From the sequence record NC_015933.1: DNA of 64,000 nt; one strand, 5' to 3'. Below, in pieces: positions 1,059 through 34,089 of the stretch. Numbering within the stretch: position 1 is the first letter of the stretch; the number at the start of each line of letters is the position of its first letter. The stretch is from Escherichia phage vB_EcoP_G7C. The notes beneath the pieces were generated by a model, which saw only the letters and a list, made by a program, of their open reading frames with translations, did not search any database and had not been told where the DNA came from. The position numbers and the translations under genes were made by a program.

Positions 1059-1227
1059 GTAAACCATTCCCTCTTAGGAGGGAATTAGCCATCTTTAGAT
1101 AGTTCAACTAGAAAGATAGCTATTCGCAGAAGATGCGAAGCAGCATCTACTTTAAGATAAGTAAAATGTCCCTGAATCTAAATCACCGTAAGAAACTCTG
1201 GATATCTTACATACCCTAAAAGACAAC

Positions 1228-1240
1228 GACGCTCCGCGTC
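1228..1240 (+). promoter_or_regulatory. Candidate virion-RNAP early promoter hairpin (gacGCTCCGCgtc)
   Basis: 5-bp stem, TCC loop, followed by TTATGGA as in the copy at 89. Confidence 0.6.
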
Positions 1241-1348
1241 TTATGGATGATGTAAATGCATCCACTAATCATTGAAATTTTATCCTTTTGTTTGGGTGTT
1301 CTCACCGACGAGTTCACCCGTAAATCACATAAATCTGGAGAGTACAAA

Positions 1349-1732
1349 ATGTCTATTCAAAAATTCACTTTCGGTCAATCTAACGCTGCTGCTACTTCTA
1401 CTGCTAAAGCGGATAAACCTAAAGCTCAGTTCTGGCTGAACATTGGTTATGTAGCTAATGAAGGTTCCGATGATGAGAAATTCATCTCGCTGCCTACTGG
1501 TATTCCACTGGATACTCAGGAACCGCTGCCTACTAACAGCAGCAATGCTGACTTCCGTGCTATGCGTTGTGCACAGAACGATTTGTTGGAACAGTTAATT
1601 GAATATGCTCAGAACCTGAAACCAGGTGAAGAAGGTATCATTAACCTGCAAGTTCAACTTCGTCGTGTGAAAGCAGAGGCTGCTGACATCCCAGCAGACG
1701 AGAATAAATATGCTCGTAAACTGACTTTCTAA
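1349..1732 (+). CDS. Hypothetical early protein (127 aa; track ORF 1256..1732 trimmed to RBS-supported ATG)
   Basis: GGAGAG RBS then ATG at 1349; upstream in-frame extension overlaps the promoter hairpin region. Confidence 0.5.
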
Positions 1733-1741
1733 TCAACAACT

Positions 1742-1770
1742 GGACTCCCTTCGGGGAGTCCTTTTATTTT
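1742..1770 (+). terminator. Intrinsic terminator (GGACTCCC-TTCG-GGGAGTCC + TTTTATTTT)
   Basis: GC-rich 8-bp stem, TTCG loop, T-run. Confidence 0.65.
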
Positions 1771-1835
1771 AACTATGCGATAAACTAAGTAGAGTGTAAT
1801 CCTACTTTTAGACGAAGAGAGACTAAGAGGTAAGT

Positions 1836-2330
1836 ATGAAGAAACCATATGGCTATTGGCAACAATCTGCTCACAATTTAGCCAAGATTCATGACCAATC
1901 TGATGCTCAGAGTAATGGGTACATATATGTAAAACATGATGGTAAAACCGTACTTTTACATGTGTGGATTTGGGAGCAAATCAACGGTGCTATACCGGAA
2001 GGGTATGAGATAGACCATGAAAATGGTATCCGTTGGGACTGTAGGTTAAGCAACCTACGATGCGTACCAAAGCTAATTAACCTAAGAAACTCAGCAAAAC
2101 AAGCTAACAATACATCTGGTACTACTGGTGTAAGTATCATTACAGATAGGGGCAGAGAATATTGGATTGCTACATGGAGTGAGCCAGTTACAGGCAAGAA
2201 GAGAATGAAGCGCTTCAGTGTACAGAAGAATGGCTATGATACTGCTAAGCAGCTAGCCATCAACTATCGTACAGAAGTTCTAAAAGATTTAATTAAAAAT
2301 CATGACTATACAGAACGTCACGGTATGTGA
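1836..2330 (+). CDS. HNH homing endonuclease with AP2-type DNA-binding domain (paralog 1 of 4)
   Basis: EIDHENGIRWDCRLSNLRCV HNH-like core; NTSGTTGVS...YWIATW AP2-like segment; close paralog of 33592..34089. Confidence 0.7.
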   Translation: MKKPYGYWQQSAHNLAKIHDQSDAQSNGYIYVKHDGKTVLLHVWIWEQINGAIPEGYEIDHENGIRWDCRLSNLRCVPKLINLRNSAKQANNTSGTTGVSIITDRGREYWIATWSEPVTGKKRMKRFSVQKNGYDTAKQLAINYRTEVLKDLIKNHDYTERHGM

Positions 2331-2407
2331 ATAGGGCTTTTCGACGAAGAGTCACTAAAACTTAAACGTAAACAGAAGCAGATAACTTAGAGTAAGGAGT
2401 AATCAAG

Positions 2408-2593
2408 ATGCGTGTACTATGTAACCGTTATAATCCAGCAAAGTTAATCGACTTTATGGAACCCATTGGTAGTCGTATGACTTATGCTGCTCGTTGGCAG
2501 GTATCCATAGCTGATAGTAGAGAACGTACTTATGACTACTTCTTTGTAGCTAAGCCTACTCGTAAACAAATCCGTAAACTTCACAAAGGATAA
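2408..2593 (+). CDS. Hypothetical protein (61 aa)
   Basis: ORF with GGAG RBS. Confidence 0.4.
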   Translation: MRVLCNRYNPAKLIDFMEPIGSRMTYAARWQVSIADSRERTYDYFFVAKPTRKQIRKLHKG

Positions 2594-2597
2594 TGCT

Positions 2598-2750
2598 ATG
2601 AAGCTACTGGCAGAGATTCTATGTATTTTATTAATGATACTGCTGGTAGCTGCATTTCCGTGGCTATTAGCCGTAGGTATAGTTATTGGTATGTTCCTAG
2701 CCAGAGCGAGTGATGCTCGTGGTAGGGATGAGCCAGGTGGAGATGTGTAA
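2598..2750 (+). CDS. Small membrane protein (50 aa, MKLLAEILCILLMILLVAAFPWLLAVGIVIGMF...), below track cutoff
   Basis: Hydrophobic ORF with AAGGA upstream. Confidence 0.3.
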   Translation: MKLLAEILCILLMILLVAAFPWLLAVGIVIGMFLARASDARGRDEPGGDV

Positions 2751-2782
2751 ACACTGCCGGAAGGGTATGTACGGAGGAACCA

Positions 2783-2956
2783 GTGATATTCACTAACATT
2801 GAAGATGCCATTGAAGAATGTATCTTCCGTAGATATCACACTGGAGTACAGAAACGACACTATGGTGTTGTGCAACTCAATGGCTATCAAATGGCTGTAA
2901 GAATTGTACGTAACAATAAACCTTTTAACTTTATGTGGAGTACTAAACATGCGTAA
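2783..2956 (+). CDS. Small hypothetical protein (57 aa, GTG start)
   Basis: GGAGG RBS 5 nt upstream of GTG; + strand like all neighbours. Confidence 0.3.
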   Translation: MIFTNIEDAIEECIFRRYHTGVQKRHYGVVQLNGYQMAVRIVRNNKPFNFMWSTKHA

Positions 2957-3077
2957 GTCATTAATCATGGGAACCAAAGCTGACGTACAGAAGATGAAAG
3001 AACGTCTGGCTGCTAAGAAACAGGCATCTGAACCAGTACGTAAGATTGTTACCTTCAATCATCCGTGCATCAAATAG
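2949..3077 (+). CDS. Small basic protein (42 aa, MRKSLIMGTKADVQKMKERLAAKK...)
   Basis: GGAG RBS; start overlaps the previous stop; followed by terminator. Confidence 0.3.
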   Translation: MRKSLIMGTKADVQKMKERLAAKKQASEPVRKIVTFNHPCIK

Positions 3078-3085
3078 TAAGGAGT

Positions 3086-3116
3086 CCTCCAATAGGAGGC
3101 TCCTATTTTTTATTTT
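3086..3116 (+). terminator. Intrinsic terminator (CCTCC-AATA-GGAGG + T-rich tract)
   Basis: Stem-loop followed by TATTTTTTATTTTT. Confidence 0.5.
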
Positions 3117-3154
3117 TGAATAGTTAGACATGTATTTAAATAGGAGAAAGAACC

Positions 3155-3463: not shown

Positions 3464-3681
3464 TGTACATGAGCAATTATGGTATTTGCCCAGTCTGTAA
3501 GAAAGGACGTGGAGTTGCTAATCATAAGAAGTGTAGTCGTATATTGCAGAAACAACGGAACCAGGAAGAATGGTCTAAGGTGCTGGAAAATCAGCACAAA
3601 GAAGAGAATCAACAGATGGCTGTTAAGGCATCTACTCAACGTATTCGCCGTATTAACTATATACAAGGATACCAAAAGTGA
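3460..3681 (+). CDS. Hypothetical basic protein with CxxC motif (73 aa)
   Basis: ATGA start/stop overlap with upstream gene; CPVCKK motif. Confidence 0.45.
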   Translation: MMYMSNYGICPVCKKGRGVANHKKCSRILQKQRNQEEWSKVLENQHKEENQQMAVKASTQRIRRINYIQGYQK

Positions 3682-3935
3682 TTATTACATTCCCTGTAAC
3701 TAAATCATTTAACTATATGGGACAAACTATTGAAGTCCCATTATGGGTTAAATATGTAGCCTTATTACCTCGTCCTCAGAAGAGTAAGAATGCCTCACTA
3801 ATTGGATTTAGTAGAAAGCCTAAGCTAACTGAAAACTGTATTTGGAAGTCCAGCGGCAGACAAGAAGAAATTGGTTTTTGTGACTATGTACCTCAACCGA
3901 ATACAGTATATCTAACCCTGGAGAAAGTAGAGTGA
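3678..3935 (+). CDS. Hypothetical protein (85 aa)
   Basis: Start overlaps upstream stop in a tightly packed gene run. Confidence 0.4.
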   Translation: MIITFPVTKSFNYMGQTIEVPLWVKYVALLPRPQKSKNASLIGFSRKPKLTENCIWKSSGRQEEIGFCDYVPQPNTVYLTLEKVE

Positions 3936-4246
3936 ATAATATTGTAGTAGTACATGATAATACATTTACTGACGTCGATAAGATGATGCGTAATATTGAT
4001 TATGTATCTCAGACTAGTAAAGCATTTAATGAAAAGTTCATTATTTACTGTGAACCAGAATCACCGCTGGTTCCCGTATTAAAGGAAGCTGGTCTACCCT
4101 TCTCTACAGAGAACTTCCCAGAGGAACCAGAGTATATGATCACATTCATATATGACTTACACGATGGCTCTCCTGCTAGTGAACTGGCTATGAACCAGTG
4201 GAGTAGTAAACGTCCTGTATATGCTTTCCAGGTACTTAAACCATGA
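3932..4246 (+). CDS. Hypothetical protein (104 aa)
   Basis: Start overlaps upstream stop. Confidence 0.45.
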   Translation: MNNIVVVHDNTFTDVDKMMRNIDYVSQTSKAFNEKFIIYCEPESPLVPVLKEAGLPFSTENFPEEPEYMITFIYDLHDGSPASELAMNQWSSKRPVYAFQVLKP

Positions 4247-4485
4247 TCTATGAAGAATATTATGTATTCAAAAAAGGAAATGATTTTATAGCTATGCCCA
4301 ATGATTACATGGATTGGCATACAACTCCTGTATTAAAAGAAGCATTTTCCGTACCTAACCTGGAAGAGGTTAATAAAGTAATGAACGGAGTAATGCTAAC
4401 AAGAGGTATGGCTTACAAAATAGACGCATTAGAAGGAGCTTCTGTATGCAAAGTAACTACATCCATTGAGGTACTTAAACCATGA
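4243..4485 (+). CDS. Hypothetical protein (80 aa)
   Basis: Start overlaps upstream stop. Confidence 0.45.
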   Translation: MIYEEYYVFKKGNDFIAMPNDYMDWHTTPVLKEAFSVPNLEEVNKVMNGVMLTRGMAYKIDALEGASVCKVTTSIEVLKP

Positions 4486-4862
4486 AAGCTATCTCATTAG
4501 GTGATAACACCAATACTCTAATGGGTGAAACTGCTCGCTCAATTACTATTGTTAATAAACATCATGGTAAATCCGGTGAGTATATTGGGCGTGGCTCACC
4601 GTTAGGCAATCCATTCATCATTGGTAAACATGGAACCAGAGAGCAAGTAATTGCTAAGTATAGAGTCTGGCTGCAAGAACAGATTGATAAAGGTAATCCA
4701 GCTGTACTGGATGAACTCAATCGTCTTGGTAATAAAGCCATTGACGAGAAAGGGCTGGCCTTACAGTGCTTCTGCTATCCCAAACCATGTCATGGTGAGG
4801 TTATTAAAGAGAAGCTCGTTCGGGCTATGTATAACTATTTTGTAGAAAATCCAAAAGGGTAA
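4482..4862 (+). CDS. DUF4326-like protein (126 aa)
   Basis: GRGSPLGNPF...CFCYPKPCHGEV motifs resemble the DUF4326 family; not search-verified. Confidence 0.5.
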   Translation: MKAISLGDNTNTLMGETARSITIVNKHHGKSGEYIGRGSPLGNPFIIGKHGTREQVIAKYRVWLQEQIDKGNPAVLDELNRLGNKAIDEKGLALQCFCYPKPCHGEVIKEKLVRAMYNYFVENPKG

Positions 4863-4865
4863 CTA

Positions 4866-5216
4866 ATGAAAGAAATCTTAGTATTCACTACCAATGTACT
4901 TGGGCAGCATACCAATGCTGCTGCCAAGTTAGCTTATAAGAAGCACGGTGCACGTTGGGGTATGGCCTACGGTCATTATGGTAATAGCTTTGCCATTCCA
5001 GTAAGGGATGGCAATGGTAACCGAATTAAAGAGGGTGCTATCTATGGCTTCGTTGAAGGCTTTATTTCCTATGCATCTACTAATCCACAGTGGGATTTCA
5101 AAGTAATGGGAGATGACTTTCTGGACCCATACCTGTTCAATAATGTTACTGGCAATGTACTGTTACCAGAAGCATGGCGTAAATACTTAGGTGATGCTTA
5201 CAACTACTGGTCATAA
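4866..5216 (+). CDS. Hypothetical protein (116 aa)
   Basis: ORF in co-oriented early gene run. Confidence 0.45.
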   Translation: MKEILVFTTNVLGQHTNAAAKLAYKKHGARWGMAYGHYGNSFAIPVRDGNGNRIKEGAIYGFVEGFISYASTNPQWDFKVMGDDFLDPYLFNNVTGNVLLPEAWRKYLGDAYNYWS

Positions 5217-9073: not shown

Positions 9074-9103
9074 GACCTCCCTATTGAAGGGAGGTCTTTT
9101 TTT
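9074..9103 (+). terminator. Intrinsic terminator
   Basis: GACCTCCC-TATTGAA-GGGAGGTC then TTTTTTT. Confidence 0.65.
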
Positions 9104-9499: not shown

Positions 9500-9826
9500 A
9501 TGAAAACTTTAATTGCTGTTGTTCTAGTAGCTCTATCAGTTCTGTCATTCGGTGCTCAAGCATCTAGTCGTGCAACCTTGTTGGAATCTGCTGCTGATTA
9601 CAAAGCTAATAATGCAAACTTTGTGAATCAAGGTTACTTCATGGGCATGGTTACTATGGGTGTGGAAGCAGGAAAGAATTGTGTACCTGACGGTATAAAA
9701 TTAGGGCACATTTTTGACAGAGTGGCATCTATTATTCTGTATGACCGAAAGGTTAATGCAGTAAAAGTACCATCAGACATGGTTCTGTTAGCGATTAATA
9801 CAGCCTATCCCTGCGTTAAATCTTAA
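9500..9826 (+). CDS. Secreted/periplasmic two-cysteine protein (108 aa)
   Basis: Signal peptide MKTLIAVVLVALSVLSFGAQAS; two Cys in the mature part. Confidence 0.5.
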   Translation: MKTLIAVVLVALSVLSFGAQASSRATLLESAADYKANNANFVNQGYFMGMVTMGVEAGKNCVPDGIKLGHIFDRVASIILYDRKVNAVKVPSDMVLLAINTAYPCVKS

Positions 9827-9860: not shown

Positions 9861-10913
9861 ATGGCGAGCATTGACTCCTTGACTGTATGTAATACACGCC
9901 AAGCCCGTAACTTTATTATCCGTGCCTTGCAAGCAGGTAACGTACCGTTCCTGACTTCATCACCAGGTATGGGTAAGTCTGCAATTATTCGTTCTATTGC
10001 AGAAGAATTTGGTATGAAGCTGATTGACCATCGTCTGTCTACTTCTGCCCCGGAAGACTTATCTGGTCTACCATTCCGTAATGGTGACCGTGCAGAGTTT
10101 ATTCCATTTGCTGACTTATTCCCTATCGAGGGTGACAAAGTACCGGATGGTTATAATGGCTGGCTCCTGTTCCTTGATGAGTTCAACTCAGCTAAGAAAG
10201 AAGTAGTGGCTGCTGCATACAAACTAATTCTCGACCGCATGACCGGACAGAAAAAACTTCACCCTAATGTGATGATTATCTGTGCCGGTAACAAAGCTAC
10301 TGACCGAGCCATAGTTAACCCACTGGGTACTGCAATGCAGTCTCGTGTTGTCCACTTCGAAATGGAACTCGACTTCGACATCTTTGTTGAAGACGTAATG
10401 ATTCCACAAGAATGGGATGAGCGTCTGGTTGCATTCTTACATGCTAACCCTGGTTATCTGCATGACTTCGACCCCGCACATAAGAATAAAACATTCTGTT
10501 GCCCACGTACCTGGGACTTTGTTAACAAAGACCTCAAGAACCGACCAGAAGGTGCTTTGCCTGATGAAGATTCTATCTACTATGCAGGCCACGTTACTGC
10601 TGGTAAAGCTACAGAGTTTGTTCAGTTCACTCAGGTATACAATCGTATGATTACGATTGAGAAGGTAGTAAAAGACCCGTTAGGCTGTGCACTACCGGAA
10701 GATAATAACCTGTGTTGGGCTACTGTTAACCATCTGGCTAACAAAACTACTGAAGATAACTTCGCTGATGTTCTTCAGTACATTGAACGCTTTAAAACGT
10801 TCACCCATAAGATTCTGTACTTCCGTACAGTAGGAAAAGCATTACCAGAAATTCAGGCTACCCCTGAATGGCGTAAGGCTGCTGCCAATATCTCTCGTTA
10901 CATTCACGGATAA
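9861..10913 (+). CDS. AAA+ ATPase, MoxR-like
   Basis: Walker A SPGMGKSA; Walker B LLFLDEFN; followed (after an HNH gene) by a VWA-type partner. Confidence 0.7.
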   Translation: MASIDSLTVCNTRQARNFIIRALQAGNVPFLTSSPGMGKSAIIRSIAEEFGMKLIDHRLSTSAPEDLSGLPFRNGDRAEFIPFADLFPIEGDKVPDGYNGWLLFLDEFNSAKKEVVAAAYKLILDRMTGQKKLHPNVMIICAGNKATDRAIVNPLGTAMQSRVVHFEMELDFDIFVEDVMIPQEWDERLVAFLHANPGYLHDFDPAHKNKTFCCPRTWDFVNKDLKNRPEGALPDEDSIYYAGHVTAGKATEFVQFTQVYNRMITIEKVVKDPLGCALPEDNNLCWATVNHLANKTTEDNFADVLQYIERFKTFTHKILYFRTVGKALPEIQATPEWRKAAANISRYIHG

Positions 10914-10916
10914 ACT

Positions 10917-11393
10917 ATGAACTGGCATGAACTATTTGTTTATAGCAATGGTTCCCTTTACTGGAAAGTAAGTAGGGGCTGCGTAAAAGCAGGTGCCATT
11001 GCTGGTTGTTTGGATAACAGCGGGTATTTGCGTGTTAAATGTAATAGAAAAAATCATTTAGTTCACCGCATAATTTATGAAATGGAAATTGGTCCAATTC
11101 CTGATGGTATGCAGGTAGACCATATTGACCACAATAGGCTAAATAATTACCCAAGTAATTTCCGTTTAGTAACAAACATGGTTAATAGTAAAAACCAAAC
11201 CATGAGAGTAACAAATACATCAGGTGTGACAGGAGTATACTGGCACACTCGGGATAAAATTTGGACTGCCCATATAAATGACAATGGTAAACAAATTTAC
11301 TTAGGAAAATTTAACAGTAAACAAGAAGCCATTTCAGCCAGAAAGGAAGCAGAAAAATTATTGGGCTACCATATAAATCATGGGGAACCCTAA
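10917..11393 (+). CDS. HNH homing endonuclease with AP2 domain (paralog 2)
   Basis: VDHIDHNRLNNYPSNFRLV HNH core; NTSGVTGVYW...WTAHI AP2-like. Confidence 0.7.
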   Translation: MNWHELFVYSNGSLYWKVSRGCVKAGAIAGCLDNSGYLRVKCNRKNHLVHRIIYEMEIGPIPDGMQVDHIDHNRLNNYPSNFRLVTNMVNSKNQTMRVTNTSGVTGVYWHTRDKIWTAHINDNGKQIYLGKFNSKQEAISARKEAEKLLGYHINHGEP

Positions 11394-12568
11394 TGAATAG
11401 TATACCTACGCATACTCTCACTGATGAACGGTTAATGAGGGAGTACGATAGAATACAAGCGCAGGCATTTCTCGGACGTAGTGCAGCGTTTTTTGGTTCA
11501 TTGCTGTGTAGTCTTAAGTTCTCATGGAAACGTGAGGGCTGTCCCACTGCATGTACCGACGGGATAGAACTCCATTTCAACCCAGACTTCTTTATCTGGA
11601 TGTGTCCTGATGCAAGGGAAACAGTGCTAATGCACGAACTTTGGCATGTGGCATATCTGCATGGAATCCGTTGTGGAAGCCGTGATCCAGAAGTCTGGAA
11701 CCAGGCATGTGACCACTTCATTAACCTTCAGTTAGAGGAAGATGGTTACAAGTTCACTGGTATCGACAAAGGCATTTGCAAAGACCCTCAATATAAAGGA
11801 TGGGTCGAAGAAGACATCTACGATGACCTGATGAAGAACCCTCAGAAAAGGCAGAAGCCGTCGGGGGGAGCTGGAGCAGGTCTTGCTGGCGACATGAAAG
11901 CTCCCTCTTCGGGGCAGTCCCAGGGTGCTGTTGTCAACAACGTAGTACGTGCAATACAAAGCCAGAAGATGGCTGGTGGAACGATGCCCGGTAAAGGTGC
12001 TGGTCGTATGGAAGAGGTTATTACCCAATTCCTTAAACCAGTGGTTCCGTGGCAGGAAGTCCTGATGAACTTCTTTACCGACATTGATGATACGCATTAT
12101 ACGTGGGCCAGACCCAACCGTCGTTTCACTGACGTCTATCTACCTTCTCTGGAAGATGATGAAGGACGTTTACGACACTTAGCCTATTTTGAGGATGTAT
12201 CCGGTTCTATTAGTAGTGCTGACTCTCTGCGTTTTAACTCAGAGGTTGCCTACGTTAAGAGCCAGTTCAATCCTAAGAAGATGACCCTAATTACCTTCGA
12301 CGATATTATCCAAGAAGAAATAGACATCACTGAAGAAGATACTTTTGAAGAGATTAAGATTACTGGACGAGGGGGTACAAACCTTGAACCAGTGCGTGAA
12401 TGGATTATTAAGAATAAGCCAACCGCTGCAATCATATTCTCTGATATGTATGTTCGCCCTATGGAAGATTTACCATTTGATATTCCTATCATCTGGTGTG
12501 TTCTGAATAATCCTAATGCTACCGTACCTTTTGGGGAGGTAGTTCATATCCCTAAAGGAATGAAATAA
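11393..12568 (+). CDS. VWA-domain / putative metallopeptidase-domain protein, partner of the MoxR-like ATPase
   Basis: HELWHVAYLH (HExxH) in N-terminal part; size and position match VWA partners of MoxR ATPases. Confidence 0.55.
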   Translation: MNSIPTHTLTDERLMREYDRIQAQAFLGRSAAFFGSLLCSLKFSWKREGCPTACTDGIELHFNPDFFIWMCPDARETVLMHELWHVAYLHGIRCGSRDPEVWNQACDHFINLQLEEDGYKFTGIDKGICKDPQYKGWVEEDIYDDLMKNPQKRQKPSGGAGAGLAGDMKAPSSGQSQGAVVNNVVRAIQSQKMAGGTMPGKGAGRMEEVITQFLKPVVPWQEVLMNFFTDIDDTHYTWARPNRRFTDVYLPSLEDDEGRLRHLAYFEDVSGSISSADSLRFNSEVAYVKSQFNPKKMTLITFDDIIQEEIDITEEDTFEEIKITGRGGTNLEPVREWIIKNKPTAAIIFSDMYVRPMEDLPFDIPIIWCVLNNPNATVPFGEVVHIPKGMK

Positions 12569-13074
12569 TGATTGTTAATGGTAATTCTCTATACCGTTCA
12601 TCTCAATTGCTGGATGTCCCAGACCGTAAGGTATCCGAGCATGGTGTAAGCTATGGATTAGGTGAAGCTGGTTATGATATTCGTATCAAACAAGACATTA
12701 CCTTCTATCGCTTATTTGGGTTAATTCCAATGGTGAAAATCGTCGATGGAAAACAAGTATCACGCCATCTCGGTAAATTCGCATTAGCTTCAGCAATTGA
12801 GAAGTTCAACATGTCACCCTCGTGTGTAGCTATCGTTCACGATAAGTCCACATGGGCAAGACGTGCATTATCTGTGTTCAATACCGTAATAGAACCAGGA
12901 TGGAAAGGGTATCTTACCCTTGAACTGGTCTATCACGGTCGTAAGAAACTGCATATCCCGGCTGGTGCTGGGATAGCTCAAGTATTATTTCATCTGGTTC
13001 AAGAGCCTGCTAATTACAACGGCAAGTATCAGAATCAGGAGGACAAACCAGTAGCTGCAAGAAGCAGTAAATAA
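12568..13074 (+). CDS. dcd: dCTP deaminase (dUTPase fold)
   Basis: IEPGWKGYLTLEL and YNGKYQNQ align with E. coli Dcd IDPGWSGCIVLEF and YRNQQG. Confidence 0.7.
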   Translation: MIVNGNSLYRSSQLLDVPDRKVSEHGVSYGLGEAGYDIRIKQDITFYRLFGLIPMVKIVDGKQVSRHLGKFALASAIEKFNMSPSCVAIVHDKSTWARRALSVFNTVIEPGWKGYLTLELVYHGRKKLHIPAGAGIAQVLFHLVQEPANYNGKYQNQEDKPVAARSSK

Positions 13075-13284: not shown

Positions 13285-13357
13285 GTAGCTGCCTAAATAG
13301 CCCAACTATGCTGGGCTATTTGTGAAGAAACTAACTCAACCTCACATAGGAACCATC

Positions 13358-13618
13358 ATGGAATCTTTAGCAGCAATCCTCGTTCTGTTATTTGCACTTG
13401 CTATATACCTTATCCCTACTATTATTGCTTTTGCACGAGGCCATGCCTCTAAGTGGGGCATTGGTATACTCAATATCGTATTAGGCTGGTCTTTAGTCTT
13501 CTGGGTAGTAGCACTGATTTGGTCACTGTCTAACAAAGGGCAGTCTCAGACTACAATCGTTAACGTTGGCAGTGGTAACCAGTACAACGTGTCTCAAACG
13601 AGCCAGTCTGATAAGTAA
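13358..13618 (+). CDS. Superinfection-immunity-like small membrane protein (86 aa from internal ATG; track 13322..13618)
   Basis: Two TM helices with GWSLVFWVVALIWSL resembling the Imm_superinfect motif; AGGAA RBS before ATG 13358. Confidence 0.45.
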   Translation: MESLAAILVLLFALAIYLIPTIIAFARGHASKWGIGILNIVLGWSLVFWVVALIWSLSNKGQSQTTIVNVGSGNQYNVSQTSQSDK

Positions 13619-13692: not shown

Positions 13693-13721
13693 AAGCCCAC
13701 CTAACCCGTGGGCTTTTTTTA
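13693..13721 (+). terminator. Intrinsic terminator
   Basis: AGCCCAC-loop-GTGGGCT then TTTTTTT. Confidence 0.6.
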
Positions 13722-27077: not shown

Positions 27078-27575
27078 ATGAAACAGAGGATTGCCCATGA
27101 CAGGCTTTTACAGCTTGTTAGTTATGACCCTATTTCCGGAATTTTTACTCGTAGGAATACCGGAAAGGTATCCGGTTACCTAATGAAGAGTGGTTACGTT
27201 CAACTCCGTGTGGATAGTGTGTTGTACTATGGGCATATCCTTGCATGGTTCTATGTGCATGGCGTATGGCCTACGGATAGGATTGACCATAAGGACAATA
27301 TACGCCATCACAACTGGATAGATAACCTCAGAGAAGCGACCCACAAGCAGAATAACCAGAGTGCTGTTTTATCTAAAACAAACACATCTGGGTTTAAGGG
27401 TGTCTCCTTTTCAAAGAATATGGGTAAGTACAGAGCAACTATTTGGGTTAATAGCAAACCAATTACATTAGGTTACACAGATAACCCAATAGAGGCTGCT
27501 GTTCTCTACGATGAAGCTGCTGTAACTCATTATGGTGAGTTTGCCAAAACCAACAAACAATTAGGACTGTTATGA
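27078..27575 (+). CDS. HNH homing endonuclease with AP2 domain (paralog 3)
   Basis: RIDHKDNIRHHNWIDNLREATHKQN HNH core; NTSGFKGVSF...YRATIW AP2-like. Confidence 0.7.
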   Translation: MKQRIAHDRLLQLVSYDPISGIFTRRNTGKVSGYLMKSGYVQLRVDSVLYYGHILAWFYVHGVWPTDRIDHKDNIRHHNWIDNLREATHKQNNQSAVLSKTNTSGFKGVSFSKNMGKYRATIWVNSKPITLGYTDNPIEAAVLYDEAAVTHYGEFAKTNKQLGLL

Positions 27576-33591: not shown

Positions 33592-34089
33592 ATGAGCAAG
33601 CCATTAGGATACTGGAATAAACCTGCCCATGAACTCGCTGTAGTACATTCTCCCGATGATGCCAATGCAAAGGATGGATACATCAGTATTAAACGTCATG
33701 GGGTGAGGGTATTTCTGCACAACTGGATTTGGGAATACTATAATGGACCAATCCCGGATGGGTATGAAGTTGACCACATCAATGGAATCCCAACTGATTG
33801 TCGACTTATTAATATGAGACTGGTGTCCCATATGATTAACTGTCGCAATCGTCGCAAAAGAATTGACAATACATCCGGCGCTACCGGTGTGTATAGACAA
33901 TGGAAGAAGACTAATGAATATTGGACTGCTGCTTGGAATGACCCGCATACAGGTAAGCTACGAACTAAAAGCTTCAACATTGGTGTTCTTGGGGATAGCG
34001 AAGCCAAAGATGCTGCTATAGCATACCGGGCTACTATAGAAGCAGACCTGGTAAAGAATCACAACTACACCTTACGCCATGGAAGATAA
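33592..34089 (+). CDS. HNH homing endonuclease with AP2 domain (paralog 4)
   Basis: Collinear with 1836..2330 over full length (GYEVDHINGIPTDCRLINMRLV; NTSGATGVY...YWTAAW). Confidence 0.7.
   Translation: MSKPLGYWNKPAHELAVVHSPDDANAKDGYISIKRHGVRVFLHNWIWEYYNGPIPDGYEVDHINGIPTDCRLINMRLVSHMINCRNRRKRIDNTSGATGVYRQWKKTNEYWTAAWNDPHTGKLRTKSFNIGVLGDSEAKDAAIAYRATIEADLVKNHNYTLRHGR

Follow-up and report, generated by a model that had tools for sequence, protein, structure and literature searches.

Genes 24 ('unknown') and 25 ('vWFA domain') of phage N4 are among the 14 core genes that N4-like phages share, and both are middle transcripts (Chan et al. 2014). Here we analyse their counterparts in Escherichia phage vB_EcoP_G7C (NC_015933.1), within a 64,000-nucleotide stretch of its DNA that is called the window below. 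In the window, a gene for an AAA+ ATPase and a gene for a protein that joins a metallopeptidase-like domain to a VWA domain are separated by an HNH-AP2 endonuclease gene. Group 2.2 jumbo phages have an identical architecture, in which a MoxR AAA+ ATPase accompanies a vWA co-chaperone with an N-terminal metallopeptidase domain, and virion assembly with peptidolytic processing was proposed as its role (Iyer et al. 2021, PMC7824862). The window VWA protein matches those of fEgEco12, UB and XbC2 in tblastn searches at only 24-26% identity, and the jumbo-phage pair differs in its genomic context, which consists of structural genes. In phage 0305phi8-36, the MoxR/vWA region can be deleted, and a growth defect results. 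The system is therefore already known in kind, from N4 gp24/gp25 and from the published jumbo-phage architecture, so the reading of an earlier note on this DNA, that a MoxR-VWA pair is interrupted by an endonuclease gene, was correct but not new.

More distant parallels exist outside the tailed phages. Compared with NorQ/NorD and CbbQ/CbbO, the phage ATPase is ~90 residues longer at its C-terminus and falls below Pfam thresholds, while the phage partner has a peptidase domain in place of the client-binding N-terminal domain. Rea1/midasin differs in that six AAA modules are joined in one giant polypeptide, which has its own metal-ion-dependent adhesion site (MIDAS) domain but no peptidase and serves ribosome biogenesis. 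The pair of the Acidianus two-tailed virus consists of a MoxR-type ATPase and a VWA protein, reportedly p618 and p892. Kaur et al. 2020 and PMC7824862 cite it as an experimentally studied viral pair, and we liken it to the phage pair by those descriptions; it belongs to an archaeal virus, is linked to extracellular tail development and, in the account given in PMC7824862, has no peptidase domain.

The ATPase and its peptidase-VWA partner

Three open reading frames (ORFs) lie on the + strand, as do their motifs, the dCTP deaminase gene and the two terminator-like hairpins described below, at the positions where the earlier note had placed them: the AAA+ ATPase gene, homologous to N4 gene 24 (9861..10913, 350 amino acids (aa)), the HNH-AP2 gene (10917..11393, 158 aa) and the peptidase-VWA gene, homologous to N4 gene 25 (11393..12568, 391 aa). 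The likeness to N4 is taken from the RefSeq notes on phages Bp4 and PhAPEC7, which are 92-93% identical and in which the outer two genes are equated with N4 gp24 and gp25. The pair also shares the gene order and genomic position found in N4, with RNA polymerase II (RNAP II) followed by the ATPase, the VWA protein and dCTP deaminase, and the DNA of the locus is 92-95% identical to that of Gamaleyavirus genomes (G7C-type N4-like coliphages, Schitoviridae). Unlike in N4, an HNH-AP2 insert separates the two genes here and in a minority of Gamaleyaviruses. We consider it likely that the locus encodes a two-component machine of the gp24/gp25 type, belonging to an N4-like coliphage (Gamaleyavirus), with a separate homing endonuclease between its genes.

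The ATPase was assigned to phrog_1297 ('ATPase', 4.5e-134) in PHROGs, while in Pfam only the generic AAA family scored above threshold (28.4 bits). When 36 relatives with identities as low as 51% were aligned, the GMGKS, LLFLDE, AGN, QSR and CPRTW motifs proved invariant. These correspond to Walker A (SSPGMGKS, 9957..9980; G38, K39 and S40 invariant), Walker B (WLLFLDEF, 10161..10184; D106 and E107), the sensor 1 AGN with N144 together with an arginine-finger-like QSR with R162 (10281..10349; A142, G143, N144, S161 and R162), and an FCCPRTWD motif (10494..10517; R216 and T217) in which we infer R216 to be a sensor-2-like arginine. The best match in a phmmer search of PDB sequences was the AAA module of midasin/Rea1 (E = 3.4e-5), and Foldseek searches with the AlphaFold (AF2) model, which has a predicted local distance difference test score (pLDDT) of 86.7, placed dynein AAA modules, NorQ (TM 0.62 normalised to NorQ), CbbQ and Rea1 at the top. 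The model has two beta elements where the helix-2 and pre-sensor-1 inserts are expected: one, of low confidence, falls between strands 2 and 3 (residues 72-79), the other before strand 4 (residues 127-133). Among the 36 relatives, AAA_5 was detected at E<=0.01 in 23, bpMoxR in 3 and AAA_3 in 2. The family profile also aligned, with 99.8% probability, to an ATPase on an unrelated contig from an archaeal metagenome-assembled genome (MAG) that scores above the AAA_5 threshold and whose gene lies directly 5' of that of a DUF2201 protein. The additional ~90 C-terminal residues are helical, and a low-threshold Pfam scan of the C-terminal half gave no match. We conclude that the ATPase is a divergent member of the MoxR/dynein/midasin (helix-2-insert) clade defined by Kaur et al. 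2020, and not a canonical MoxR protein.

The partner consists of DUF2201_N, the 'putative metallopeptidase domain' of Pfam (1.3e-54, 186.1 bits against a cut-off of 23.2), followed by DUF2201, the 'VWA-like domain' (2.9e-34, 118.3 bits against a cut-off of 26.4), a combination that we take to be the COG3864-type 'predicted metal-dependent peptidase'. The profile search thus found metallopeptidase and VWA-like domains in the 391-aa protein rather than an unrelated family, in keeping with the VWA-type partner bearing a HELWH motif that the earlier note had described. NCBIfam gave no match for this protein, the ATPase or the HNH-AP2 protein. In the structural model (pLDDT 79), a zinc-metallopeptidase-like domain (~1-150) is connected through a linker of helices to a minimal VWA domain (263-386) in which the Rossmann-like VWA fold is present. 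Conservation was assessed in an alignment of 37 relatives with 47-84% identity. H81, E82 and H85 of the HExxH motif (LMHELWHVA, 11627..11653) are invariant and sit within a predicted active-site helix (72-87) that follows a small beta-sheet. A105 and D107 of the WNQACDH motif (11696..11716) are invariant as well, and C106 is conserved in >=90% of the relatives. D107 of this NxACD motif lies in the next helix of the model and is a candidate third zinc ligand; the modelled arrangement of the two helices would fit a minimal zincin. Scanned by itself against Pfam at a low threshold, the N-terminal domain returned DUF2201_N alone.

The MIDAS (12188..12448) is likewise invariant, and comprises D268-x-S270-G-S272 (12188..12211), G-G-T329 (12365..12382) and D351 (12431..12448). 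The best Foldseek match of the VWA domain was CLCA1, a self-cleaving eukaryotic metalloprotease that also combines a HExxH protease with a MIDAS-bearing VWA domain; the analogy is one of architecture only, and CLCA1 differs in being extracellular, eukaryotic and without an AAA+ partner. Just before the VWA domain, W238, R243, R244, Y249 and P251 of the segment YTWARPNRR...YLPS (12098..12151) are invariant, although the surrounding residues 232-256 have a pLDDT <50 and are predicted to be disordered. By analogy with the finger of NorD that enters the NorQ pore, this segment could, speculatively, be an element for ATPase engagement or autoregulation.

The partner has no HNH domain. PHROG 1314, to which it corresponds, nevertheless bears the name 'HNH endonuclease', which numerous gp25 homologues in RefSeq and GenBank have taken over (e.g. 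SP5M gp29 and St11Ph5 gp32). This is an annotation error, probably seeded by neighbouring homing endonucleases, and the many mislabelled RefSeq entries need correction.

By analogy with NorQ/NorD, Rea1 and the general MoxR-vWA model, we propose a three-step mechanism as the most likely one. The ATPase, being of the hexameric type, would form a ring, on which the VWA-MIDAS protein would dock while capturing an acidic or unstructured peptide of the client. ATP hydrolysis would then remodel the partner and the target, and the fused HExxH peptidase would cleave either the client or the partner itself.

Mobile elements at the gene pair

The HNH-AP2 ORF matched Pfam HNH_3 over profile positions 2-45 of 46 (64.1 bits, 9.2e-18), with an intact nuclease motif, and Pfam AP2 just short of the cut-off (30 bits against 33.3; 6.5e-7), which bears out the identity that the earlier note had given it. 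It also matched the PADLOC 'HEase' model and phrog_99; its family occurs in 3643 phage records, and phages often combine HNH_3 with AP2 in this way. The 158-aa protein is a freestanding HNH-AP2 homing endonuclease and not part of the ATPase-VWA machine. The gene was inserted exactly at the intergenic junction and the tight packing was kept: a 3-nucleotide (nt) spacer separates it from the ATPase gene, as noted earlier, while its TAA stop codon and the ATG of the VWA gene share one base (TAATG), so that the '0-nt spacer' of the earlier note is in fact a 1-base overlap. Three further HNH(-AP2) paralogues with 30-37% identity are present in the window (1836..2330, 27078..27575 and 33592..34089), and the genome therefore holds at least four homing-endonuclease-like genes.

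The insert is polymorphic. The endonuclease gene was found at this junction in 10 of the 40 close relatives listed, as three diverged alleles, and the other 30 had the junction without it. The first allele is that of the window, UE-M6, UE-M3, UE-S5a and UE-S5b (92% mutual identity), the second (74%) is that of Mimir124, and the third (~65%) is shared by Bp4, PD38 and Uz-1, with the Bp4 copy truncated or frameshifted as deposited; Moonfish was placed in the Bp4-type allele through its annotation and a shared 5' end rather than a DNA match. At the empty junction of SP5M, U1G, NAN33P5, PhAPEC7 and St11Ph5, a 7-nt spacer, TCACAAC, is all that separates the ATPase stop codon from the VWA start codon.

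While the final 60 nt of the ATPase gene are the same in the window and SP5M, identity is only 67% over the 60 nt with which the VWA gene begins. We compared the VWA gene between and within two classes, represented by five endonuclease-bearing and five endonuclease-free genomes. Over its first 66 nt (11393..11458), a tract that is altered in all endonuclease-bearing genomes, divergence was 32.7% between the classes, as compared to 1.8% within the endonuclease-free and 13.3% within the endonuclease-bearing class, and 13 differences were fixed between them. Later segments diverged by 9-14%, without class structure. Between the window and SP5M, 22 of the 66 tract positions differ, against 59 of 1110 in the remaining gene (binomial p = 1.7e-12), and the changed codons of the tract comprise 11 synonymous and 4 non-synonymous ones.

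Judging by this pattern, the probable recognition site of the endonuclease is the initial ~66 nt of the VWA gene in its endonuclease-free form, where its cleavage site would lie, and endonuclease-bearing genomes are probably protected there through mostly synonymous recoding. Such a tract is the footprint that a freestanding homing endonuclease would be expected to leave. The seg and mob genes of T4 are freestanding phage homing endonucleases, and the element appears to be of their class: it is an intergenic gene, is present in some genomes and absent from others, and is accompanied, where present, by clustered and mostly synonymous changes in the adjoining conserved gene. In this sense the endonuclease is an ordinary homing element, neatly documented.

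Other mobile elements were found within the coding sequences of the pair. In U1G, 882 bp of inserted DNA (positions 1277..2158 of locus L003), which include an HNH ORF, separate codon 105 of the ATPase gene from codon 106. The insertion point splits Walker B as LLFL/DEF, between L105 and D106 (window positions 10175 and 10176), and is shared by NAN33P5, which carries two HNH-bearing inserts (L005): one in Walker B (1077..1958) and one in the CPR/TW motif (2293..3152). The latter corresponds to window positions ~10508 and 10509, with exon 2 ending in ...CCPR and exon 3 beginning with TWDF. Against the Rfam group I intron model, the inserts scored below the gathering score of 50 (U1G, 23.7 bits, E 0.006; NAN33P5, 35.6 bits, E 1.8e-6), and by their sequence they can be called group-I-intron-like and putatively spliced.

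Two VWA-peptidase homologues, P0244 (519 aa) and P0248 (701 aa), contain two different inteins (Hint/Intein_splicing), both located exactly at NxA/CD (window positions ~11707 and 11708) so that the conserved Cys is the +1 residue. This shared site points to the NxACD motif as functionally critical. Mobile elements of this sort persist in strongly conserved, critical sequence, and their positions thus indirectly support the importance of Walker B, CPRTW and NxACD. With three kinds of selfish element on the pair or its homologues, the catalytic motifs appear to be not only strongly conserved but probably essential.

In the Pseudomonas jumbo phage MIJ3 (L019), an unrelated and larger HNH homing endonuclease gene (3464..4960) was observed between the AAA ATPase and DUF2201 genes. 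It lies directly 5' of the DUF2201 gene, so that the same inter-gene position has been occupied convergently. The MIJ3 DUF2201 protein is mislabelled 'DNA repair ATPase' in its record.

Linkage, spread and genomic setting

Relatives of the VWA protein are encoded at 80 IMG/VR loci. In 69 of these, the ATPase gene is 5' of the VWA gene on the same strand, and nearly all of the 11 where it is not are contigs truncated on the upstream side. The gap between the two genes was <=100 nt in 27 of the 69 loci, 101-400 nt in 9, 401-1300 nt in 24 and >1300 nt in 9. This spread shows that gene order is conserved while adjacency is not, and that tight co-translation is unnecessary. No third gene was conserved between or beside the pair across the 80 viral loci, where only lineage-specific unannotated ORF families were seen; the commonest gap ORF family occurred in 15 loci and had no PHROG match.

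The VWA-peptidase occurs in 736 phage records, including those of the jumbo phages fEgEco12, UB and XbC2, the PA5oct-like MIJ3 and rV5-like phages, and its profile matched 22,146 clusters (50% identity) in public data at E<=1e-3. The ATPase gene is directly 5' of the VWA gene in fEgEco12, nearby in MIJ3 and DrSchubert, and associated with it at one further locus (L012). Two distant N4-like loci (L007 and L008) keep the order ATPase, VWA, dCTP deaminase. The first, on a 297-kb contig from a Roseococcus MAG, also carries RNAP II subunits, and the second, at 434974-448110 of the 727-kb contig2 of Mesorhizobium yinganensis CN2-181, has thymidylate synthase after the three genes. N4-like blocks in such large bacterial contigs may stem from the integration of N4-like elements or from chimeric assembly. 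In the Bp4 and U1G records, the ATPase and/or VWA gene is annotated as two pieces owing to frameshifts, which could be sequencing errors or real decay.

In the window, the dCTP deaminase gene (12568..13074; Pfam DCD, 3.3e-16) overlaps the stop codon of the VWA gene at 12568. The block of ~9.1-13.7 kb that contains the pair is flanked on both ends by terminator-like hairpins, which a consensus scan placed at 9074..9096 upstream and 13693..13715 downstream; the SP5M record has a terminator annotated at the position equivalent to the former. A scan for sigma-70 promoters found 9, with 10.3 expected from shuffled sequences, and thus no enrichment, but the scan is uninformative because N4 middle genes are transcribed by the phage RNAP II. 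Within the block, the ORF just 5' of the ATPase gene (9500..9826) has a signal-peptide-like N-terminus and bears a Tai4 or Rap1a (type VI amidase immunity-like) label in relatives, and a downstream ORF (13322..13618) encodes an Imm-type superinfection-immunity membrane protein. Both are host-interaction genes.

Candidate roles of the pair

Several results weigh against the identification of the locus as a gp24/gp25-type machine with a homing endonuclease. The ATPase scored 17.8 bits against Pfam AAA_5, under the cut-off of 22, and AAA_3, the family of MoxR proper, was undetected in it. Because of the sub-threshold AAA_5 score, what supports the 'MoxR-type' label of the earlier note is structure and context, not a family hidden Markov model. 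The helix-2 insert region (residues 72-79) was modelled at a pLDDT of only about 51-54, and generic AAA+ proteins (clamp loaders, Lon and RuvB) were also among the Foldseek matches. For the N-terminal domain of the partner, neither sequence nor fold searches found a solved peptidase; PDB sequence searches with the VWA-peptidase, as a single sequence and as a 37-sequence profile, gave marginal integrin VWA matches only. Peptidase activity is therefore suggested by the invariant HExxH motif and the description of the Pfam family. The pair is often non-adjacent in relatives, with gaps of up to 4.4 kb, and the recoded tract could be a co-conversion scar instead of a recognition site. The literature searched for functional work on N4 gp24/gp25, on DUF2201 or on a MoxR/VWA pair from the Schitoviridae gave genome descriptions only, and a CRISPRi-ART phage fitness paper had no match to N4-related terms. 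On balance, the gene layout noted earlier is confirmed and the interpretation of it as a two-component machine is supported, while none of the candidate roles in assembly, in replication or nucleotide metabolism, or in counter-defence is established.

Virion assembly, in which the machine would chaperone and proteolytically process structural or capsid-internal proteins, is possible but doubtful. It is what Iyer et al. 2021 (PMC7824862) proposed for the same architecture, and the pair of the Acidianus two-tailed virus was reported as necessary for tail development in work that Kaur et al. 2020 cite; structural genes also flank the pair in fEgEco12, and roseophage RPP1 has a second structural module near its gp24/gp25 homologues. 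The N4-like pair, however, sits in a middle-gene block between RNAP II and nucleotide-metabolism or replication genes and not in a late structural module, and the gp24/gp25 homologues were missing among the virion proteins of RPP1 and RLP1 identified by mass spectrometry (Table 4, Chan et al. 2014). Alternatively, the machine could mature a nearby-encoded enzyme complex, as NorQD, CbbQO, CoxDE and chelatases do, with the peptidase removing a pro-peptide or inhibitor. The order ATPase, VWA, dCTP deaminase, thymidylate synthase is kept from coliphages to alphaproteobacterial N4-like elements, thymidylate synthase lies near the pair in fEgEco12 too, and metalloenzyme maturation is typical of MoxR-VWA systems. 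We nonetheless think this role unlikely: synteny inside a collinear phage family is weak evidence, the rV5-like and MIJ3 contexts have no such neighbours, and dCTP deaminase and ThyX resemble no known MoxR client. Somewhat less probable again is a part in host takeover or counter-defence, with the machine capturing, degrading or inactivating a host protein such as an immune sensor or housekeeping factor. Prokaryotic conflict systems widely contain MoxR-vWA cores together with effector peptidases (Kaur et al. 2020), the pair is expressed ahead of the late genes, and the Tai4/Rap1a-like and Imm genes are its immediate neighbours. Yet matches to PADLOC defence models were not significant (no family for the VWA protein and one sub-threshold DolB match for the ATPase), and strict conservation as core genes across very different hosts better suits a client internal to the phage.

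Two further explanations deny the composition of the machine itself. Were the ATPase and the VWA protein functionally unrelated neighbours, the former could be clamp-loader-like or another replication AAA+ protein, as a weak match to phrog_168 'clamp loader' (4.2e-6), the RFC and gamma-complex structures among the Foldseek matches and the frequent separation of the two genes might suggest. The best sequence and structure matches are instead midasin, dynein, NorQ and CbbQ, a same-strand upstream ATPase is near-universal with the VWA gene, including in unrelated phage families and on a non-N4 contig, and VWA partnership is a hallmark of this AAA+ clade (Kaur et al. 2020). We judge such a chance association very improbable, and a clamp-loader-like ATPase was rejected on the basis of the best matches and synteny. 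It is more improbable still that the HNH-AP2 protein is a domesticated third component of the system and not a selfish element, even if its gene is packed between the other two with a 3-nt spacer and a 1-nt overlap and the unrelated jumbo phage MIJ3 also has an HNH gene in that place. It is missing in about three-quarters of the close relatives listed, where the ATPase and VWA genes are intact, exists as three diverged alleles with a truncated or frameshifted copy deposited for Bp4, and has both a homing-typical recoded flank and paralogues scattered in the genome. The polymorphism among relatives led us to reject it as a functional subunit.

Beyond the gp24/gp25-type machine that we favour, a stronger claim, to which we attach little confidence, is that no N4-like phage can do without gp24/gp25, which together would be a dedicated AAA+ protease of two components. 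The MIDAS would pick the client, the ring would unfold or extract it with the WARPNRR...YLPS segment threaded into its pore, and the peptidase would cut it, the client being a key switch of infection. Such a client might be a replication, transcription or capsid-internal protein, for instance the giant virion RNA polymerase, or a host factor that is destroyed.

The locus is of modest interest, and that interest lies in the target of this core phage machine. G7C-type phages are tractable for point mutants of the ATPase, the MIDAS and the peptidase, and the natural endonuclease-bearing and endonuclease-free Gamaleyaviruses make a ready test system for homing. The pair itself is among the very few genes that all N4-like phages have in common, and jumbo, PA5oct-like and rV5-like phages have it as well.

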